A DNA stretch of 64,000 nucleotides from NCBI GenBank assembly GCA_023659895.1, contig JAGXOL010000002.1, forward strand, positions 4,388-68,387, read 5' to 3'. The position numbers and the translations under genes are program-made. This document shows positions 2,482-59,691 of this stretch, in pieces. This DNA is from Candidatus Aenigmarchaeota archaeon LH_S7 (lineage in GTDB: Archaea; Aenigmatarchaeota; Aenigmatarchaeia; QMZS01). The notes under the pieces were generated by a model, which was not told the origin of the DNA, did no database searches, and saw nothing but the letters and a program-made list of their open reading frames with translations. The number at the start of each line of letters is the position of its first letter. Within the stretch, counting starts at the first letter, position 1.

Positions 2482-4136
2482 TTAGAACTTTTCTTATATA
2501 GGTTCTCAATTCTATTTAAAGTATCTACTTCTTCCACGCTTTTGTCCTCTCTTATTCTGATCAGTTTTGGGAACCTTAGTGCATAACCACTCTCATAGGT
2601 AGGGGATTTCTGTATTTCCTGATAGCCTGTCTCAACAACAACTTTTGGTTTTATCCTAACTTTGTTCTCTTTTTCAAATTCAATTAAGGGTTTTAATGTT
2701 TTGGTCATCTCCTTGAACTGCTCATCTGTTAAACCAGTCCCCATCTTTCCAATCCCTAATAATTCTCCTGTTTCCTCATCTCTAGCAGCTAGAATAAAAG
2801 AAGCGAGCCAATTTGCTCTTCTTCCCTGTCCCCATTCAGCTCCAACCACAACCAAGTCCAAGGTTTCCTCTTCTGGTTTTACTTTGTACATGTACCCAAC
2901 TCTTTTCCCTGGTTGGTAAGGTGCATCCAAGTTTTTAACCATTATTCCCTCTTGTCCCAAATCCAAGGCCTCGTTGTAGAATTTCTCTACTTTTTCAACA
3001 TCTTTAGTAACCAACTGCTCAGCTAGTTGAAATTTTCCTTTTTCCTGGGAGATAATTTCTTCCAGTTTTTTCCTCCTTTTTGAGAACTTCTCATCAAGTA
3101 ATTGCTTCCTGTCTACAAGAAGACAATCAAACAAGTTTACTTGCACTGGTATCTCCTGTGACATTTTCCTGATGTTATACTTTCTTTGGATTCTTTTGCT
3201 GAGTTCCTGGAAAGGTAAGAGTTTTCCATCTCTAATTGCAACTGCTTCTCCCTCAAGAATTGACTTTTCCACTTTAATATTTTTCTTGCAGAGCTCAACA
3301 ATATCAGGGAATTGCTTTGTAACATTTTCCAATCTTCTGGTAAAGACCCATATTTTTTCTCCCTCCTTTTGGGTTAAGATGCGGGTTCCATCATACTTGT
3401 ATTCTATAGCTGGGTTCTTAGCATCTTCCAAAGCTTTTTCCAGGTTTTCGGATTTTTCAGCAAGCATTGCTTTTGTTGGAGTTCCAATTTCCAAGCTTAT
3501 TTTTTTCAATCCTTTGTCCCCATCATTTTTTGCTATCTTTGCAACTCTTCCAAAATCAGTAATTAAATTGTAATCTCTTTCAACTAGCTCTTTGTCAACT
3601 TCAAAAGCTTTTGATGTTGCATCTCTCAAGATTCCCTCCGCAGTGCCCAATCTTAGCTCTCCAAGAATTGTTCTAATAACATATCTTGCCTCTGAAGGTT
3701 CCGCTGAGTTGAGTAGTTCAAGAATGTTGTTGATTTTTCTTTCTTGGGAGTTCTTTCCAGTATATTTCGCGATTTCTCTTATAGATTCGTAAACCTTTTT
3801 TATTTTTAAACTTTTCTTGAAAAGAATTGATTGTTTCTTTTTTTTGGCTATTTCCTGGGCAACCAAACCTAAATCACCACTATCTTTGAACTTGTCCATT
3901 ATCTCCTTTTTAGAATAACCTAATTTTGTTAGGGCAAGTATAACTAGATTATCTGCAATTCCTAGATCTTCTTCTTCACTTTCAGAGAAGATTTTTCCTC
4001 TCAACAAAGGCATTACAATTTTTAATTCCTCACCATTGAGGTCTTTAATAAAGTTTGCAATAATATCAGTTTTCTCAAGTTTTTTTGTTGTACTTCCAAC
4101 CTTATCATAAACATCAACCAAAGTTTTGTATTTCAT
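2478..4136 (-). CDS. lig: ATP-dependent DNA ligase
   Basis: It has the adenylation motif EYKYDGTR (KxDG), an OB-fold C-terminus and a length of 552 aa. Confidence 0.95.
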   Translation of the reverse strand: MKYKTLVDVYDKVGSTTKKLEKTDIIANFIKDLNGEELKIVMPLLRGKIFSESEEEDLGIADNLVILALTKLGYSKKEIMDKFKDSGDLGLVAQEIAKKKKQSILFKKSLKIKKVYESIREIAKYTGKNSQERKINNILELLNSAEPSEARYVIRTILGELRLGTAEGILRDATSKAFEVDKELVERDYNLITDFGRVAKIAKNDGDKGLKKISLEIGTPTKAMLAEKSENLEKALEDAKNPAIEYKYDGTRILTQKEGEKIWVFTRRLENVTKQFPDIVELCKKNIKVEKSILEGEAVAIRDGKLLPFQELSKRIQRKYNIRKMSQEIPVQVNLFDCLLVDRKQLLDEKFSKRRKKLEEIISQEKGKFQLAEQLVTKDVEKVEKFYNEALDLGQEGIMVKNLDAPYQPGKRVGYMYKVKPEEETLDLVVVGAEWGQGRRANWLASFILAARDEETGELLGIGKMGTGLTDEQFKEMTKTLKPLIEFEKENKVRIKPKVVVETGYQEIQKSPTYESGYALRFPKLIRIREDKSVEEVDTLNRIENLYKKSSN

Positions 4137-4164: not shown

Positions 4165-5241
4165 ATGGAGGTCAAAAAAAGGGTTGAGAAGATTCTGGAA
4201 AAATATAATATTTGTGATACTTGCTTAGGGAGACAATTTCATGGTCTCTATCCTGAAAAAAGTAATAAAGAAATCGGGGAAAAGTTGAAATATGATTTTG
4301 ATTATAGAAAGAAAAAAGAATGTTATTTTTGTGGAGGTTTTTTTGAGAATTTTGAGAAAGAATTAAAAAAAATTGAGAGGGAATTAAAAAAATATGAATT
4401 TCATACGTTCCTAGTTGGTTCTGAGTTTCCCAGAAAAATGATTCAAAGAGAGGAAAAACTTTGGGAGGAAAATGGGGTTGACCTTTGTGAGGCAATAAAA
4501 ACAAATTTGAATAGAGAAGTTGGATTGGAATTGAGAAAAAGATTGGGAAAAGAAGTGGATTTTGAGATTCCTGATGTAATGGTTATTGTTGATTTAATTA
4601 AAAATAAAACTATAGTGCAAGCATCTCCTTTGTATGTTGAAGGAACTTATAAAAAAATTCTTCCTAGAAGTAAAATCCAAAAAACAATAGAAAGTAATTT
4701 TTTGAGAAAAAGTAAGAGTGAGAAGGTAATATTTTATTCTGCTGGGAGGATGGAAGAGAATGTTGTCACTTCATTTTACAAAGACTTTCTTGTTAAGTTG
4801 AAAGCTCCTAGAAAAAGGAGATTAAATTTGAGAGAGCTGGAAAGGAAAATAAACCAAAACAAATCGGTTAAGGTAAAGGATTTAGGATATTCAAAGAAAA
4901 AGAAGATTGAAGATCTTAAAAGCAGGCATTTGGTTTCTTATTCAGTTGTTCTAAAATTTGGTAAATTAGATGGAGAAAAGAAAGAGATTGCAGATAGTTT
5001 AAGAAAATTGGAGAACAAAAAAGTGCACCAGGAACTAAAAAACAAAATCAGGAAGCCTAAAATCAGTAAATTAGAAAGAAAATTTGAAGATAAAAAATTA
5101 AAGTTAAATTTGGAAAGCACAGAAAATTTCTCAATTAATGATTTCCTGGACAAGAGTAAGCCTAACTTGAAGGATACAATAGGGGAGGAATTTAAAGTTA
5201 AAGAGATTGTGATGAAAAGTTGCAGAAAATTAAAGAAATAA
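4165..5241 (+). CDS. Pus10-like tRNA pseudouridine synthase (divergent)
   Basis: The N-terminus has zinc-ribbon cysteines CDTC..CYFCGG. The region SAGRMEENVV..LKAPRKRR aligns by eye to the Pus10 GREDxDxRMLG..P.KR block. The ATG at 4165 is preferred over the GTG at 4147. Confidence 0.6.
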   Translation: MEVKKRVEKILEKYNICDTCLGRQFHGLYPEKSNKEIGEKLKYDFDYRKKKECYFCGGFFENFEKELKKIERELKKYEFHTFLVGSEFPRKMIQREEKLWEENGVDLCEAIKTNLNREVGLELRKRLGKEVDFEIPDVMVIVDLIKNKTIVQASPLYVEGTYKKILPRSKIQKTIESNFLRKSKSEKVIFYSAGRMEENVVTSFYKDFLVKLKAPRKRRLNLRELERKINQNKSVKVKDLGYSKKKKIEDLKSRHLVSYSVVLKFGKLDGEKKEIADSLRKLENKKVHQELKNKIRKPKISKLERKFEDKKLKLNLESTENFSINDFLDKSKPNLKDTIGEEFKVKEIVMKSCRKLKK

Positions 5242-11592: not shown

Positions 11593-12954
11593 ATGGTGAA
11601 TATCAAATCAAAAACAAGTTTGGTTTTAGTATCGATTATTTTATTGTCATTTATATTTGTTCCTCCTATTTTTGCTGATGGATGTATAGCTATCCATGAT
11701 CTTGATATGTCTCGTTGGAAACTTCAAGATATGGATCAGCAATTATGTGCAATAAATTATGAAAATGGGTCTGAAAACATGCTTTTGTCTGTTGATGTTA
11801 GTGATTTACATGGTGAAAAAGGTGTCTGGATTTTCCCTATTCCTGCAAAACCAGACAAAACAGTAATAGACGTAATCAAAGGATTCCCAAGACTTCGAGG
11901 GTATGATGTAAAAAGAAGAACAGATGAAACAATTTCTGATACTTTTAGTGTAATGAGATTATCTCAGGTTTATACATTTTTTCCATTTATGTTCTTTACT
12001 GGTATGGGTGCTATGAGTATGGGTACTATGTATGCGGGCACAGAAAGAGGAATTACAGCACATGAACATATAGAAAAGATGGGTTTAACAACTGAATTAG
12101 TTACTGCAAAAGATGGAGATGCTTTTTATAATTATTTGACAAATAAAAACTTAGATTTACCTCCAGATTTAAAATCAATTTTAGAGGAATATATAGGTAA
12201 AGAATATTCTTTTGTTGTTTCTTGGATTTCAGATGTTGAGAAATTTAAGAAAGAATCTGCAACAAAAGATAGATATGGCAATACTATTAATACTGTTGGA
12301 GTTTTTATCAAGTTCCCAACTGATAAAATTTATTTTCCACTGAAACCAACGAGTGTTTATGGGAGTACAAAAGTTCCGATATCAGTTTATGTTGAAGGAC
12401 ATGTAACCCCTAAACTTTATTCAGAAATTGAAGAAGGAAAAGTTAATTATTTTGTTGATCGTTATTATCATGTTCCTGAGGAGTTATCTTCTTTCTTCAA
12501 CGGAAAAAAAATTATCAATTTGAAATACACAAAAATCAAAATAAATACACCCTCAAAATATTTAACTAAAGATTTATGGATAAAAGACTCTCCTCCAGCC
12601 CATATTGTTTTAGATAGTTTTATAAATAGGTCTGTTTGGTTATGGGGTATAATATTCTTTATATTAAGTTCGTGTTTAGCAAGTATGTTTGCTGGAATGA
12701 TTACTTTTAGAAAAGACCAACCATCCAAGAAAAAATTCGCTTTATTTGGCTTATGGAACTTTTTAACCTTAATTGGTTTTGCAGTTGCTTCTATGTTTCT
12801 TAGAACTAAGAAACTAAAACCTGAACTGGAACAACAACTTAAATCTCAAGGACTTACAGTTTGGGATAGTAGAAAAACTTTATTTGTATTCCTATTTACA
12901 GTGTTTTTCTTAATCATAACTTTTGTTTTTCAAATTGTTTTATCTATTTTTTAG
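11593..12954 (+). CDS. Hypothetical membrane-anchored protein
   Basis: It is 453 aa, with an N-terminal signal/TM segment and about three C-terminal TM helices. No family was recognised. Confidence 0.6.
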   Translation: MVNIKSKTSLVLVSIILLSFIFVPPIFADGCIAIHDLDMSRWKLQDMDQQLCAINYENGSENMLLSVDVSDLHGEKGVWIFPIPAKPDKTVIDVIKGFPRLRGYDVKRRTDETISDTFSVMRLSQVYTFFPFMFFTGMGAMSMGTMYAGTERGITAHEHIEKMGLTTELVTAKDGDAFYNYLTNKNLDLPPDLKSILEEYIGKEYSFVVSWISDVEKFKKESATKDRYGNTINTVGVFIKFPTDKIYFPLKPTSVYGSTKVPISVYVEGHVTPKLYSEIEEGKVNYFVDRYYHVPEELSSFFNGKKIINLKYTKIKINTPSKYLTKDLWIKDSPPAHIVLDSFINRSVWLWGIIFFILSSCLASMFAGMITFRKDQPSKKKFALFGLWNFLTLIGFAVASMFLRTKKLKPELEQQLKSQGLTVWDSRKTLFVFLFTVFFLIITFVFQIVLSIF

Positions 12955-14767: not shown

Positions 14768-15774
14768 GGTGTGCGAAATAAAATAACCAACTAATCAACT
14801 CTCTACAGGAAGCCTAATTTCGCACACTTACTTCACTAAAGAGACCAGTTCCACCTTACTATTTTAGATTCTAAATCTGCTAAACTCCCTGAGACTTGTT
14901 TTGTTATTGATAATGCTGTCAACAGCAGTGAGCAATATTGCACTCAATGAAGCAAAAACAACAGATATTTTTCTTTTAATTCCAACAACATTCTGCCAAC
15001 ATTTATCCATTGAGTTTTTGATAACTGAATTGAACTGCTCAACAATATATCTCTTTTTCTTCAGTATTTTTGGAGTCCAACGTCTTTTCTTGGTGTTCCT
15101 CCTGTTTTTTGCAATTACTGGTTTTGCCCCTTTCTCTCTACAAGCTTTTCTATTGGCCTCTGAATCATAACCAGCATCTGCTAAAGCAAGTTTACCTGAG
15201 ACCAATAACTCTGGTAAGAAAGGGGAATCATGTTTGTTTCCTGTTGTTAAAATTGCCTTTAGAGGCAATCCAAGTTGGTTTACAGAAAGATGTGTTTTAA
15301 ATCCTTTGAATGCTCCTCTCGAGTAAAAACCAACTTTGGTATCTGGATCTTCTTCATCCACCAAAGGAGTTGAGTCTATTATCAATAGTTCTGTTGGAAT
15401 AATCATCTGAATTATTGATGACAATTTGTTGAATACTTGTGTTACTAGATCAGAATATGTTTTCTTCCAGACACTAAGTCTTGACCTGTCTGGAACTCCT
15501 GTTAATCCAAGGCTTCTTCTTATTTTTGGATTCATTCGTTGCTTCACAACGATGCACCGTTTTGCTTCGCAAAACGAGTGTGCTTTTAAATGTCTGATTA
15601 ACTGGCAATCATTGAATCCTCTAATTTTCTGGTAAATTAAAGTTCTTGTTCTTGGTACATTTCTATATCCTCTTCTACCTCTGCCTTTCTGAGATGGAAC
15701 CATCCCTTTGTTTACCAAATGTCTTATAATATTACCTGCTTCCATCTATTAATTTGGTTTATTTCGCACACCCC
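14768..15774 (-). mobile_element. IS4/IS5-superfamily insertion sequence, copy 1
   Basis: It has terminal inverted repeats GGTGTGCGAAATAAA at both ends, plus a third internal copy of GTGTGCGAAAT near the 3' end. TTTATATAT-like sequence is present on both flanks. Confidence 0.85.
14864..15745 (-). CDS. DDE transposase (DDE_Tnp_1, IS4/IS5 type), 293 aa, with a 16-aa insert
   Basis: It has the motifs IIDSTPL, ADAGYDS and RYIVEQFNSVIKN. It is about 90% identical to the copy at 42185-43018, apart from the HSFCEAKRCIVVKQRM insert. Confidence 0.9.
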   Translation of the reverse strand: MEAGNIIRHLVNKGMVPSQKGRGRRGYRNVPRTRTLIYQKIRGFNDCQLIRHLKAHSFCEAKRCIVVKQRMNPKIRRSLGLTGVPDRSRLSVWKKTYSDLVTQVFNKLSSIIQMIIPTELLIIDSTPLVDEEDPDTKVGFYSRGAFKGFKTHLSVNQLGLPLKAILTTGNKHDSPFLPELLVSGKLALADAGYDSEANRKACREKGAKPVIAKNRRNTKKRRWTPKILKKKRYIVEQFNSVIKNSMDKCWQNVVGIKRKISVVFASLSAILLTAVDSIINNKTSLREFSRFRI

Positions 15775-23310: not shown

Positions 23311-23558
23311 GGGCATGTAGCTCAGCTGGATAGAGCACCGGCCTTCTAAGGAACCGAGGAAAGCCGGGGGTCGCAGGTTCGAAGGGAACTTTTAGAAAAA
23401 GTTCCATCAAAAAAAGAAGGGAACTTTTAGAAAAAGTTCCATCAAAAAAAGAAGGGAACTTTTAGAAACCTCGAAAAACAAAGTTTTTCGGGGCCCCATA
23501 AACCTTTGGTTTATGAGGAAGTTCCATCAAAAAAGTCTCGGGAATCCTGTCATGCCCA
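23311..23558 (+). tRNA. tRNA-Arg(UCU) with two introns (13 nt at 37/38, 23349-23361; 161 nt at 59/60, 23384-23544)
   Basis: The exons fold as acceptor GGGCATG/CATGCCC, D stem GCTC/GAGC, anticodon arm CCGGC-CTTCTAA-GCCGG and T stem GCAGG/CCTGT around TTCGAA|T. Confidence 0.85.
23384..23535 (+). repeat. Tandem 35-nt repeat inside the tRNA-Arg T-loop intron (2 exact units + 1 expanded unit)
   Basis: The unit GGGAACTTTTAGAAAAAGTTCCATCAAAAAAAGAA occurs at 23384-23418 and 23419-23453. The third unit starts at 23454 and has its hairpin loop replaced by two nested hairpins (23469-23493 and 23497-23515). Confidence 0.9.
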
Positions 23559-42155: not shown

Positions 42156-43116
42156 GGGGTGTGTGAAATAAACCAAATTAATAGATGGAAGCAGGTAATA
42201 TTATAAGACATTTGGTAAACAAAGGGATGGTTCCATCTCAGAAAGGCAGAGGTAGAAGAGGATATAGAAATGTACCAAGAACAAGAACTTTAATTTACCA
42301 GAAAATTAGAGGATTCAATGATTGCCAGTTAATCAGACATTTAAAAGCAAATCCAAAAGTTAGAAGAAGCCTTGGATTAACAGGAGTTCCAGACAGGTCA
42401 AGACTCAGTGTCTGGAAGAATCTATATTCGGATCTTGTGATAACTGCCTTCAACAAATTGTCATCAATAATCCAGATGATAATTCCAACAGACATGTTAG
42501 TTGCGGATTCAACTCCTTTAGTGGATGAAGAAGATCCAGATGCAAAAGTTGGTTTTAATTCAAGAGGGGCATTCAAAGGATTTAAAACACATCTTTCTGT
42601 AAACCATCTTGGATTGCCTCTAAAGGCAATTTTAACAACAGGCAATAAACATGATTCCCCTTTCTTACCAGAGTTATTGGTCTCAGGTAAACTTGCTTTA
42701 GCAGATGCTGGTTATGATTCAGAGGCCAATAGAAAAGCTTGTAGAGAGAAAGGGGCAAAACCAGTAATTGCAAAAAACAGGAGGAACACCAAGAAAAGAC
42801 GTTGGACTCCAAAAATACTGAAGAAAAAGAGATATATTGTTGAGCAGTTCAATTCAATTATCAAGAACTCAATGGATAAATGTTGGCAGAAGGTTAGAGG
42901 AATCATAAGAAAAACATCTGTTGTTTTTGCTTCATTGAGTGCAATATTGCTCACTGCTATTGACAGTATTATCAATAACAAAACAAGTCTCAGGGAATTC
43001 AGCAGATTTAGAATCTAAAATAGTAAGGTGGAAATTATCTCTTTAGTGGGAGCATGTGTGCGAAATTAGGCTTCCTGTAGAGAGTTGATTAGTTGGTTAT
43101 TTTATTTCGCACACCC
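42156..43116 (+). mobile_element. IS4/IS5-superfamily insertion sequence, copy 2
   Basis: It has the same termini as copy 1 (GGGGTGTGTGAAATAAACC ... TTATTTCGCACACCC). It is flanked by AAAAATAGTAT on both sides. Confidence 0.85.
42185..43018 (+). CDS. DDE transposase (IS4/IS5 type), 277 aa
   Basis: It has VADSTPL, ADAGYDS and RYIVEQFNSIIKN. Confidence 0.9.
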   Translation: MEAGNIIRHLVNKGMVPSQKGRGRRGYRNVPRTRTLIYQKIRGFNDCQLIRHLKANPKVRRSLGLTGVPDRSRLSVWKNLYSDLVITAFNKLSSIIQMIIPTDMLVADSTPLVDEEDPDAKVGFNSRGAFKGFKTHLSVNHLGLPLKAILTTGNKHDSPFLPELLVSGKLALADAGYDSEANRKACREKGAKPVIAKNRRNTKKRRWTPKILKKKRYIVEQFNSIIKNSMDKCWQKVRGIIRKTSVVFASLSAILLTAIDSIINNKTSLREFSRFRI

Positions 43117-47649: not shown

Positions 47650-47856
47650 CGCCTCGGGGAGGATTCTCGAACTTCAATGAGGGAATGCGTTGAAAGGAAG
47701 AAATGTGTTCTCCCTTTTAACCTCGAACCTCCGACCTCATGGTTTCTGCAGGTATATAACAGCTTCGCCCGGAACCTTCTTTTTAATCAGGTTTTGACTG
47801 GAAGCGGAAGCTCCAAAAGATTCCGACATGCGCTCTACCTGCTGAGCTACCGAGGC
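47650..47856 (-). tRNA. tRNA-Asn(GUU) with three introns (47764-47826 at 30/31; 47744-47756 at 37/38; about 47664-47721 at 59/60)
   Basis: Four exons (30+7+22+14 = 73 nt) assemble into acceptor GCCTCGG/CCGAGGC, D stem GCTC/GAGC, anticodon arm CATGG-CTGTTAA-CCATG, T stem GGAGG/CCTCC and discriminator G. Confidence 0.8.
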
Positions 47857-48487: not shown

Positions 48488-48561
48488 AATATTCTTTGTT
48501 AAAAACTTTCTTCTTTTGGATCAAACCTTCCTTTTTTGCTCAAGCTTTTTTAAAAGCTTGT

Positions 48562-48715
48562 TTTGATGGAACTTCCTCATAAACCGAAGGTTTATGGGGC
48601 CCCGAAAAACAAAGTTTTTCGAGGTTTTTAAAAGTTCCCTTCTTTTTTTGCTGGAACTTTTTTCTAAAAAGCTCATTCGAACCCGCGACTTTCAGGTGTC
48701 TTCTTTCATAGAGGC
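48562..48715 (-). other. Orphan tRNA-like 5' fragment fused to the intron hairpin module (split-tRNA half or pseudogene)
   Basis: The minus strand reads GCCTCTATGAAAGAAGACACCTGAAAGTCGCGGGTTCGAA. It continues with a degenerate repeat unit and the two-hairpin module seen in the tRNA-Arg intron. No CCCGC/acceptor 3' exon follows. Confidence 0.5.
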
Positions 48716-59538: not shown

Positions 59539-59576
59539 ACTTGAATTTCAAAAAAATTTTTAAAAAGAAAATAATA

Positions 59577-59691
<115 letters not shown>

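Follow-up and report, generated by a model that had tools for sequence, protein, structure and literature searches.

Two questions are raised by nt 23311–23558 (+) of the 64,000-nt stretch of DNA analysed here (the window; positions 4,388 to 68,387 of contig JAGXOL010000002.1, assembly GCA_023659895.1, from Candidatus Aenigmarchaeota archaeon LH_S7): whether this heavily interrupted locus still specifies a working tRNA, and what the 161 nt inserted into its T-loop represent. The region is organised as exon / 13-nt insert / exon / 161-nt insert / exon, i.e. five segments. An earlier note, made from the sequence alone, had identified it as a tRNA-Arg(UCU) gene with a long intron built from an amplified hairpin, and had suggested that the intron carries a self-propagating or functional RNA. 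The observations described below indicate that the locus is probably a working tRNA-Arg(UCU) gene with two bulge-helix-bulge (BHB) introns, in the longer of which the interior is functionless and has been remodelled by duplication, inversion and copying at the DNA level. On the evidence of the T2SSE/FlaI-like ATPase encoded alongside, the organism belongs to the Aenigmarchaeota, in agreement with the DPANN host that the note had supposed.

Exon 1 (nt 23311–23348, +) provides the 5' strand of the acceptor stem, the D-arm, the 5' strand of the anticodon stem and the anticodon loop as far as position 37, as delimited by ARAGORN after in-silico splicing, and is identical in the syntenic orthologue of the closest relative, L115 (GCA_023659905.1, JAGXOM010000001; 95% neighbour-protein identity to the window). 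Exon 2 (nt 23362–23383, +) covers positions 38–59, and includes the 5' strand of the T-stem, GCAGG (nt 23373–23377), the sequence TTCG (T54–G57, nt 23378–23381) and A58 A59 (nt 23382–23383). Exon 3 (nt 23545–23558, +), which is supported by Logan contig L114, supplies U60, the 3' strands of the T-stem and acceptor stem, and the discriminator A. When the three exons are joined, ARAGORN reports a 74-nt tRNA-Arg with anticodon TCT and a clean cloverleaf, bearing out the claim that such a structure is obtained only after excision of two segments. Removal of the long insert alone leads the same program to report a 13-nt anticodon-loop intron, which corresponds to the insert predicted at 37/38 (nt 23349–23361). 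The unspliced locus, by comparison, gives no ARAGORN call and scores 22.5 bits with the Rfam model, for which the threshold is 29. Among 24 ORFs (open reading frames) of the window, AGA makes up 63% of the Arg codons, and AGA plus AGG 92%. As AGA is the main Arg codon, a tRNA-Arg(UCU) must be made, and no intron-less copy of its gene was found within the window.

The long insert (nt 23384–23544, +) lies at 59/60, six nucleotides past the stem, and thus corresponds in the T-arm to 37/38. With AA at both junctions, the sequence alone would allow a cut at 57/58, 58/59 or 59/60; of these, the BHB geometry selects 59/60, the position that the earlier note had given. In this arrangement the T-stem is the outer helix, and TTCG (T54–G57) pairs at all four positions with CGGG (intron positions -6 to -3), forming a central helix, H. 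The two bulges, of 3 nt each, are AA/G (58, 59 and i1, with the slash marking the cut) and AA/U (the last two intron nucleotides and U60). The inner helix is either the unit hairpin described below or the helix that closes the entire intron in the minimum-energy fold, where the 5'-most GGGA.CUUUU pairs with the 3'-most AAAAG.UCUC. All 15 of the 59/60 introns that could be delimited show H with 3–4 of its 4 pairs, and the 3' bulge is AA/U in 13 of them, AG/U in L153 and AU/U in L117. The unit hairpin starts at intron nucleotide 2, and in the shortest relative (L153, 28 nt) it directly abuts the H strand, producing a textbook helix-bulge-helix-bulge-helix (hBHBh') motif; the unit hairpin can therefore be equated with the inner BHB helix, h'. 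In a comparison of 10 lineages its outer 4 bp covary, being paired in 96.7% of cases with 15 cells changed on both sides, a level reached by none of 500 shuffles, while slid controls gave at most 67%. The shorter intron, AGGAACCGAGGAA (nt 23349–23361, +; 13 nt), has a helix formed by C32–C35 and GAGG, a 3' bulge of AA/A, and a 5' cut site that falls in a loop.

The interior of the 59/60 intron is highly repetitive. Unit 1 (nt 23384–23418, +) consists of a 9-bp hairpin, GGAACTTTT-AGA-AAAAGTTCC, followed by the A-rich tail ATCAAAAAAAGAA, and unit 2 (nt 23419–23453, +) is an exact tandem copy of it, detected both by Tandem Repeats Finder (period 35, 2.5 copies, 100% identity) and by a repeat search. 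The two exact 35-nt copies were thus confirmed, and growth of the long intron through repeated tandem copying of this hairpin unit is supported. Unit 3 (nt 23454–23535, +) is the exact 35-nt unit split between AGAAA and AAGTTCC by a 50-nt palindromic insertion (nt 23469–23518, +), after which comes the tail ATCAAAAAAG. The insertion comprises the adjoining hairpins CCTCGAAAAAC-AAA-GTTTTTCGGGG and CCCCATAAACC-TTT-GGTTTATGAGG, with the centre GGGGCCCC, which are roughly inverted copies of one another. The first has 11 bp, including one G.U; for the second, the centroid structure shows 8 bp and the minimum-energy fold 10 pairs interrupted by a C.A mismatch. The earlier description of a third copy with two nested hairpins, of 11 and 8 bp, was correct as to the hairpins and the insertion, and needs amending in that they stand side by side rather than one within the other. 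Unit 3 folded in isolation gives a three-way junction (-30.7 kcal/mol, z -5.5), as had been proposed, and every hairpin of the intron is present in its minimum-energy fold. The 22-nt hairpin occurs three times, compared with 0.00 expected in shuffles, the third copy being at nt 1364–1385. At the 3' end (nt 23539–23544, +) are the BHB elements CGGG and AA, the latter being the first two nucleotides of the 3' bulge; both are identical in L115. Signs of a group I, group II or homing-endonuclease intron were not seen, there being no ORF in the 161 nt and no match to an Rfam intron family.

Several observations weigh against reading the locus as a spliced gene with an unstable intron. The helix next to H is weak (3 bp), with a break in the strand that faces the 5' bulge; the 59/60 motif is thus relaxed and not strict, and the 13-nt intron at 37/38 shows only a bulge-helix-loop, which is also of the relaxed type. 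Relaxed motifs need a broad-specificity EndA, as reported for DPANN lineages, in which EndAs with an L3 loop accompany heavy tRNA disruption (PMC5829648), and in favour of splicing there is the precedent that the 59/60 intron of tRNA-Cys from ARMAN-2 is cleaved in vitro by the EndA of that organism (PMC3239211). Scanning of about 40 ORFs of the 64-kb window against Pfam revealed no EndA gene, nor was RtcB found among them. In the metagenome set, the hairpin core CTTTYAGAAAAAG was imposed by the search pattern and the outer stem pairs were unconstrained; hence only the latter constitute independent evidence. A sense-strand T5 run (GTTTTTC, nt 23483–23487) is a possible archaeal terminator within the pre-tRNA. 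Similarly, in the orthologous tRNA-Arg(UCU) of L115 (nt 11850–12200) the 176-nt anticodon intron has T7 runs on the sense strand, because the repeat array is reversed there (see below), and these are possible archaeal terminators in that pre-tRNA. Finally, Logan contigs of k=31 break inside the repeat, at about nt 23410 and 23505, so that the number of tandem units is provisional.

The same Logan contigs (SRR14170872), an independent assembly, do confirm both ends of the 161-nt intron, and contigs from two source samples confirm the intron ends of the window type and of the L115 type. The k=31 contigs stop at nt 1387, 23410 and 23505, which lie at or within the hairpin modules of tRNA-Ala and tRNA-Arg, which indicates that it is precisely at tRNA genes that these repeats break up graph assemblies of short reads.

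Orthologues of the gene were compared in other Aenigmarchaeota. The tRNA is found between the T2SSE ATPase gene and eRF1 in relatives whose neighbouring proteins are 95, 78, 71 and 70% identical, and in L118 (66%) it is directly downstream of the ATPase gene and is followed by NDK instead of eRF1. The series consists of six members (L118, L123, L121, L117, L115 and the window), the partial L124 having been left out, and the 59/60 intron occurs in five of them. It is absent from L118, which has a 32-nt anticodon intron; it measures 46 nt in L123, where there is a D-loop intron and no anticodon intron, 56 nt in L121 and 40 nt in L117, both with D-loop and anticodon introns, 97 nt in L115, alongside the 176-nt anticodon intron, and 161 nt in the window, alongside that of 13 nt. 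The 37/38 intron accordingly varies from 0 to 176 nt, and the D-loop intron is also variable. The exons are near-identical across the series and show compensatory changes, namely CCGGC/GCCGG versus CCGCC/GGCGG and GGGCATG/CATGCCC versus GGGTATG/CATACCC.

The interior of the intron, on the other hand, has been swapped wholesale between orthologues, with only the BHB-proximal nucleotides and the first hairpin retained. Between the window and L115 the BHB nucleotides are exactly preserved although the interior has been rearranged, and the 37/38 intron of L115 has the same ends as that of the window, with about 163 nt inserted between GGAACC and GAGGAA. The 59/60 intron of L117 has just one unit, made up of TAGAGCTTTCAGAAAAAGCTCC and an A-rich tail, which indicates that in the window intron nearly all of the ancestral body has been triplicated. 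The module is entirely missing from the more distant tRNA-Arg orthologues. It is the tRNA gene that is under selection, and not the interior of its intron.

These comparisons bear on whether the locus could instead be a decaying pseudogene or an assembly artefact, with the real tRNA-Arg(UCU) gene located elsewhere. That the short-read contigs break in the repeat, that neither ARAGORN nor Rfam calls the gene, and that the window contains a truncated tRNA remnant with a similar array (see below) are all compatible with such a view. It is contradicted by intact exons with compensatory substitutions in six syntenic lineages, by the exact conservation of BHB nucleotides between the window and L115, by the dominance of AGA among Arg codons, and by the confirmation of both intron ends in an independent assembly. 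Moreover, all three intact tRNA genes of the window (Ala, Arg and Ile) have 59/60 introns, so this type of disruption is the normal organisation of the genome. Given this balance, the idea of a pseudogene or artefact can be accorded hardly any credence.

The two other intact tRNA genes, together with the remnant, also show how far the hairpin module is shared. A regular-expression search for the hairpin found just three loci in the 64 kb (0.18 expected): tRNA-Arg, tRNA-Ala and the remnant. The tRNA-Ala(UGC) gene (nt 1304–1441, +), with the G3:U70 identity pair, contains a 64-nt intron at 59/60 (nt 1364–1427) in which the first 22–23 nt are identical to the start of the tRNA-Arg 59/60 intron. 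ARAGORN misses the intact gene, and Rfam sees a tRNA without a T-arm, while splicing restores a canonical cloverleaf (ARAGORN). The syntenic tRNA-Ala(UGC) of L121 matches in the acceptor and T-arm, and has no intron. In the tRNA-like remnant (nt 48526–48715, -), duplicated upstream A/T-rich sequence and GCCTC, which tRNA-Ile also has, are accompanied by the 5' half of a T-arm, GCGGGTTCGAA. The three-unit array that follows is 93% identical to the tRNA-Arg 59/60 intron over 113 columns; neither a 3' T-stem strand nor an acceptor strand was found within nt 48526–48715. Downstream of the remnant are tRNA-Ile and a 193-aa ORF that has an HExxH motif; the remnant could be a pseudogene or one half of a split gene. 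Unit 3 has homologues at nt 48561–48639 (-; 93.7%) and in L115 (87%), the L115 copy having the reverse orientation with respect to the tRNA. The loop of inner hairpin A is AAA in the tRNA-Arg intron and TTT in the remnant, a swap that is as expected from template switching in a quasi-palindrome.

The third intact gene, tRNA-Ile(UAU) (nt 47650–47856, -), carries inserts of 65 nt at 32/33, 11 nt at 39/40 and 58 nt at 59/60, and its spliced product is a perfect cloverleaf of 73 nt. A single-deletion scan was ambiguous in the anticodon region, where the two inserts were worked out by hand. The 59/60 intron of this gene differs in content from the module, and its helix H is paired at 4 of 4 positions. 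ATA accounts for 43% of the Ile codons in the window.

The most extensive rearrangement is seen in comparison with L115. When the L115 introns are reverse-complemented, nucleotides 2–150 of the window T-loop intron align with the anticodon intron over 159 columns (80%), and the window T-loop intron aligns with its T-loop counterpart over 75 columns (89%). Within L115, the 37/38 and 59/60 introns match each other in the same orientation (84 columns, 96%). No copies of the module outside tRNA genes or remnants were detected by regular expression or blastn in the 64-kb window or in 22 kb of L115, and in those 22 kb they are confined to tRNA-Arg. The DUF72 gene and the 544-aa ORF, neighbours through which the tRNA-Ala and the tRNA-Ile and remnant loci of the close relative were sought, have no relative closer than 67% and 58% identity, respectively, in the protein collection.

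Such reversals are difficult to reconcile with the functional intron-borne RNA proposed in the earlier note, in which the three-way module would be freed after splicing, perhaps as a stable circle, and act as, for example, a guide, decoy or regulatory RNA. The strong folding (z about -5.5) and the 87–94% conservation of the module between three loci or genomes would fit such a role. There is also precedent: archaeal BHB introns are known to be circularised, and the tRNA-Trp gene of Haloferax volcanii has a long (about 100 nt), structured BHB intron that carries a C/D-box guide small RNA in one orientation. The Arg intron resembles the latter in being long, structured and of BHB type, and differs in that it lacks C/D boxes, matches nothing in Rfam and shows no preferred orientation. 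In L115 the module is reverse-complemented relative to the transcript, and the opposite strands of the 161-nt intron fold equally well (-52.7 versus -52.0 kcal/mol), with the G.U and C.A asymmetries of the inner hairpins cancelling out. Significant Rfam matches, C or D boxes, and the sequence CUGA are all absent from the intron, and the module is lacking in more distant orthologues. The replacement of the interior between orthologues weakens the proposal further, and the one hairpin that is kept can be explained by splicing, as the inner BHB helix. Since orientation is not conserved and no RNA family is matched, a functional intron RNA is very unlikely.

The suggestion that the element is self-propagating can be upheld in part. 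The same module is present in tRNA-Ala, in the remnant and in both tRNA-Arg introns of L115, and tRNA-Ala of L121 is intron-less, so that propagation stands at the DNA level only. One explanation for this distribution is a selfish palindromic DNA element, of about 35 nt per unit or about 150 nt per array and similar to miniature inverted-repeat transposable elements (MITEs), repetitive extragenic palindromic sequences (REPs) or palindrome-associated transposable elements (PATEs), that inserts into tRNA introns, where it would find a safe haven, or creates them, in either orientation. The intron would still be BHB-spliced, with its content due to transposition instead of slippage or gene conversion. 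Bacterial REPs and bacterial interspersed mosaic elements (BIMEs), and the archaeal PATEs, which derive from IS200/IS605 insertion sequences, are short hairpin arrays found in both orientations. The module shares these features, and on one strand has TTGAT by the hairpin foot. It differs in that all copies are within tRNA genes or their remnants, none being at intergenic gene ends, and in that no Y1 transposase is encoded in the window.

The mobile-element explanation would account for the occurrence of the array at four sites in both orientations relative to the tRNA (the window tRNA-Arg T-loop intron, the remnant, and both L115 introns), and for units bounded by the inverted repeats GGAACTT...AAGTTCC. 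On the opposite strand, TTGAT, which we take to be the target pentanucleotide of the IS200/IS605 element ISDra2, precedes many of the hairpins, and this serves as a lead only. An analogous module duplication between the tRNA-Glu genes of L140 and L141 (see below) would likewise fit. Several findings point the other way. The tail is not always ATCAA, with AGCAA, AAGCC and AAAGA also occurring, and TTGAT stands beside many hairpins but not all. All copies, whether from the window or from the 22 kb of L115, are in a tRNA gene or remnant and none is intergenic, and a target-site duplication is not definable, because the short 37/38 intron of the window looks like a deletion derivative. The window has no gene for Y1 (TnpA), TnpB or an integrase, and since the inverted copies are 22 exon nt apart, local fold-back template switching would suffice. 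A mobile element thus appears unlikely. Two IS5-like DDE transposase genes are present in the window (nt 14864–15745, -, and nt 42157–43116, +), the second bounded by terminal inverted repeats of about 16 nt; these repeats, GGGGTGTGTGAAATAAA, are unrelated to the intron module, and a link with the IS5-like elements was rejected. It is a tentative idea, and a doubtful one, that the array of about 150 nt behaves as a discrete cassette that is moved or copied, in either orientation, between the BHB-intron sites of different tRNA genes.

The preferred explanation, a spliced tRNA gene with a functionless and unstable intron interior, suggests the following course of events. In the pre-tRNA, T54–G57 would pair with intron CGGG (-6 to -3) to give a 4-bp central helix, with cut sites within the 3-nt bulges A58-A59-G(i1) and A-A-U60. 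The inner helix would come from the first unit hairpin or, alternatively, from the GGGA.CUUUU/AAAAG.UCUC closing helix. After cleavage of both bulges by EndA, the exons would be joined, and the intron probably circularised, by an RtcB-type ligase; we infer these steps from the known archaeal pathway. The first hairpin and the last six intron nucleotides would be retained for splicing. The rest may be regarded as a triplicated ancestral body (hairpin plus A-rich tail) with a 50-nt quasi-palindromic insertion, which, because it is palindromic and free of selection, would expand, invert and be copied at the DNA level. Slippage, hairpin-mediated template switching and gene conversion are the likely routes, and the conserved T-arm flanks GGTTCRAA...TCC may allow copying from one intron site to another. 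Copying of this kind would explain the same cassette in tRNA-Ala, in the pseudo-tRNA and, reversed, in the anticodon intron of the relative. Fold-back template switching and short-homology gene conversion are plausible, given that the two sites are 22 exon nt apart and that the flanks of 59/60 sites are shared.

Introns and hairpins of a similar kind were also recovered elsewhere. In a second lineage (L140, L141, L127, L128, L132, L137 and L152), 59/60 introns have a common start, TGAGCCTTTTAGAAAAAGGCTCAAGC, followed in most by CAAAA, and those of tRNA-Ser(UGA), tRNA-Glu(CUC) and a Gly-like tRNA match over the first 24 nt (31 nt in most). Between L140 (JGI Ga0190309_1000279) and L141 (Ga0164310_10042369) the tRNA-Glu 59/60 intron differs by duplication of an internal module (119 versus 166 nt), and in L130 the hairpin plus ATCAAAA is found in both introns. 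No shared genes were found on the metagenome contigs with similar introns by which they could be placed taxonomically. In L003 (nt 1220–1420, -), from JAUVCN010000157, a metagenome-assembled genome labelled Thermoplasmatales, there is an intact tRNA-Arg(TCG), upstream of which a 22-nt copy of the tRNA 5' end and an inverted copy flank the hairpin GGGGAACTTTTCAAAAAAGTTCC plus ATCAAAA, closely resembling the window unit. L135 (nt 3700–3830; TARA_B110000008 scaffold119071) has GGTTCAAA, then tandem half-hairpin units like AAAGAACTTTTAAT, and ATCAAAAA repeats. A scan of contigs with GGGAACTTTTNNNAAAAGTTCC proved too loose and was discarded, the matches being mostly bacterial palindromes that matched on both strands and are probably terminator hairpins.

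A viral link was considered, and rejected as evidence that the module stems from a mobile element. IMG/VR gave no match to the exact hairpin or to the T-loop-plus-hairpin pattern, and no viral match to the spliced T-arm junction. The pattern CTTTTAGAAAAAGNNNNNATCAAAA, which itself imposes ATCAAAA, detected nine loci with tandem hairpin arrays (L157–L165), in which stem-CTTTTAGAAAAAG-stem' plus ATCAAAA follows directly after gene ends. The three array contigs scanned against Pfam are giant-virus-like, with major capsid proteins of nucleocytoplasmic large DNA viruses in two of the three. Arrays at gene ends fit the known AT-rich 3'-end palindromes of giant viruses, and their likeness to the archaeal intron unit, striking as it is, is probably coincidental.

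A stand-alone 5S rRNA gene (nt 59576–59691, -; 75.6 bits) was the only rRNA gene in the window.

Introns at 59/60, tRNAs with multiple introns, and relaxed BHB motifs have already been described in DPANN archaea (PMC3239211, PMC5829648). The closest parallel is ARMAN-2 (Ca. Micrarchaeum), which shares the DPANN affiliation, the 59/60 site, a BHB or relaxed junction, and multi-intron tRNAs (Fujishima et al. 2011, PMC3239211). Its pre-tRNA-Cys(GCA) has an intron at 59/60, and its pre-tRNA-Pro(GGG) has introns at 53/54 and 59/60. The ARMAN-2 59/60 intron is 13 nt long and without internal repeats, as against 161 nt with tandem 35-nt units and a palindromic insertion in the present case (PMC3239211). 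In Thermoproteales, as summarised for that group, intron sequences are common to several tRNA genes and an 'intron transposition' of unknown mechanism was inferred (PMC4090602, PMC4033280). The likeness extends to near-identical introns in different tRNA genes and positions (37/38, 59/60), presence or absence among orthologues, and spread inferred at the DNA level. The present example comes from Aenigmarchaeota, and involves a palindromic, modular cassette that is tandemly amplified and also reverse-complemented, features not found in the Thermoproteales summaries. Closely related natural populations of Caldiarchaeum subterraneum are reported to differ in the interruption of the same tRNA gene (Sugahara et al. 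2012, PMC3293823), whereas in the present case the introns keep their positions and what differs is a repeat cassette within them, which has been inverted, duplicated or deleted. In the literature searched there was no intron of tandemly amplified hairpin-plus-tail units, no cassette in both orientations shared by two intron sites of one tRNA, and no type of 59/60 intron that recurs in many low-GC archaeal contigs and keeps a conserved 5' hairpin.

The origin of archaeal protein-spliced introns, and their spread between tRNA genes, has been regarded as an unresolved question (PMC4090602). Here, two populations with about 95% neighbour-protein identity differ in tRNA-Arg by amplification, inversion, deletion and inter-intron copying of a cassette, and the tRNA-Ala of the window gained or kept the module while the L121 copy is intron-less, a series that is suited to reconstructing the DNA events. 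All three intact tRNA genes in the 64 kb were missed by ARAGORN with default settings and two of the three fall below the Rfam threshold, which bears on the 'missing tRNAs' repeatedly reported in DPANN archaea (PMC5829648; bioRxiv 10.64898/2026.05.13.725050). Should the intron prove to be neutral, unstable filler and nothing else, the locus would be an instructive, if unsurprising, extension of archaeal tRNA gene disruption. If the movement of the cassette is real, then together with the conserved family of 59/60 introns that have a hairpin plus A-rich tail and recur in many low-GC archaeal metagenome contigs it would mean that archaeal tRNA introns are being gained and remodelled at present, and would expose how BHB introns spread at the DNA level, for which copying through the T-arm flanks (GGTTCRAAUCC) and hairpin-mediated template switching would be the candidate mechanisms.

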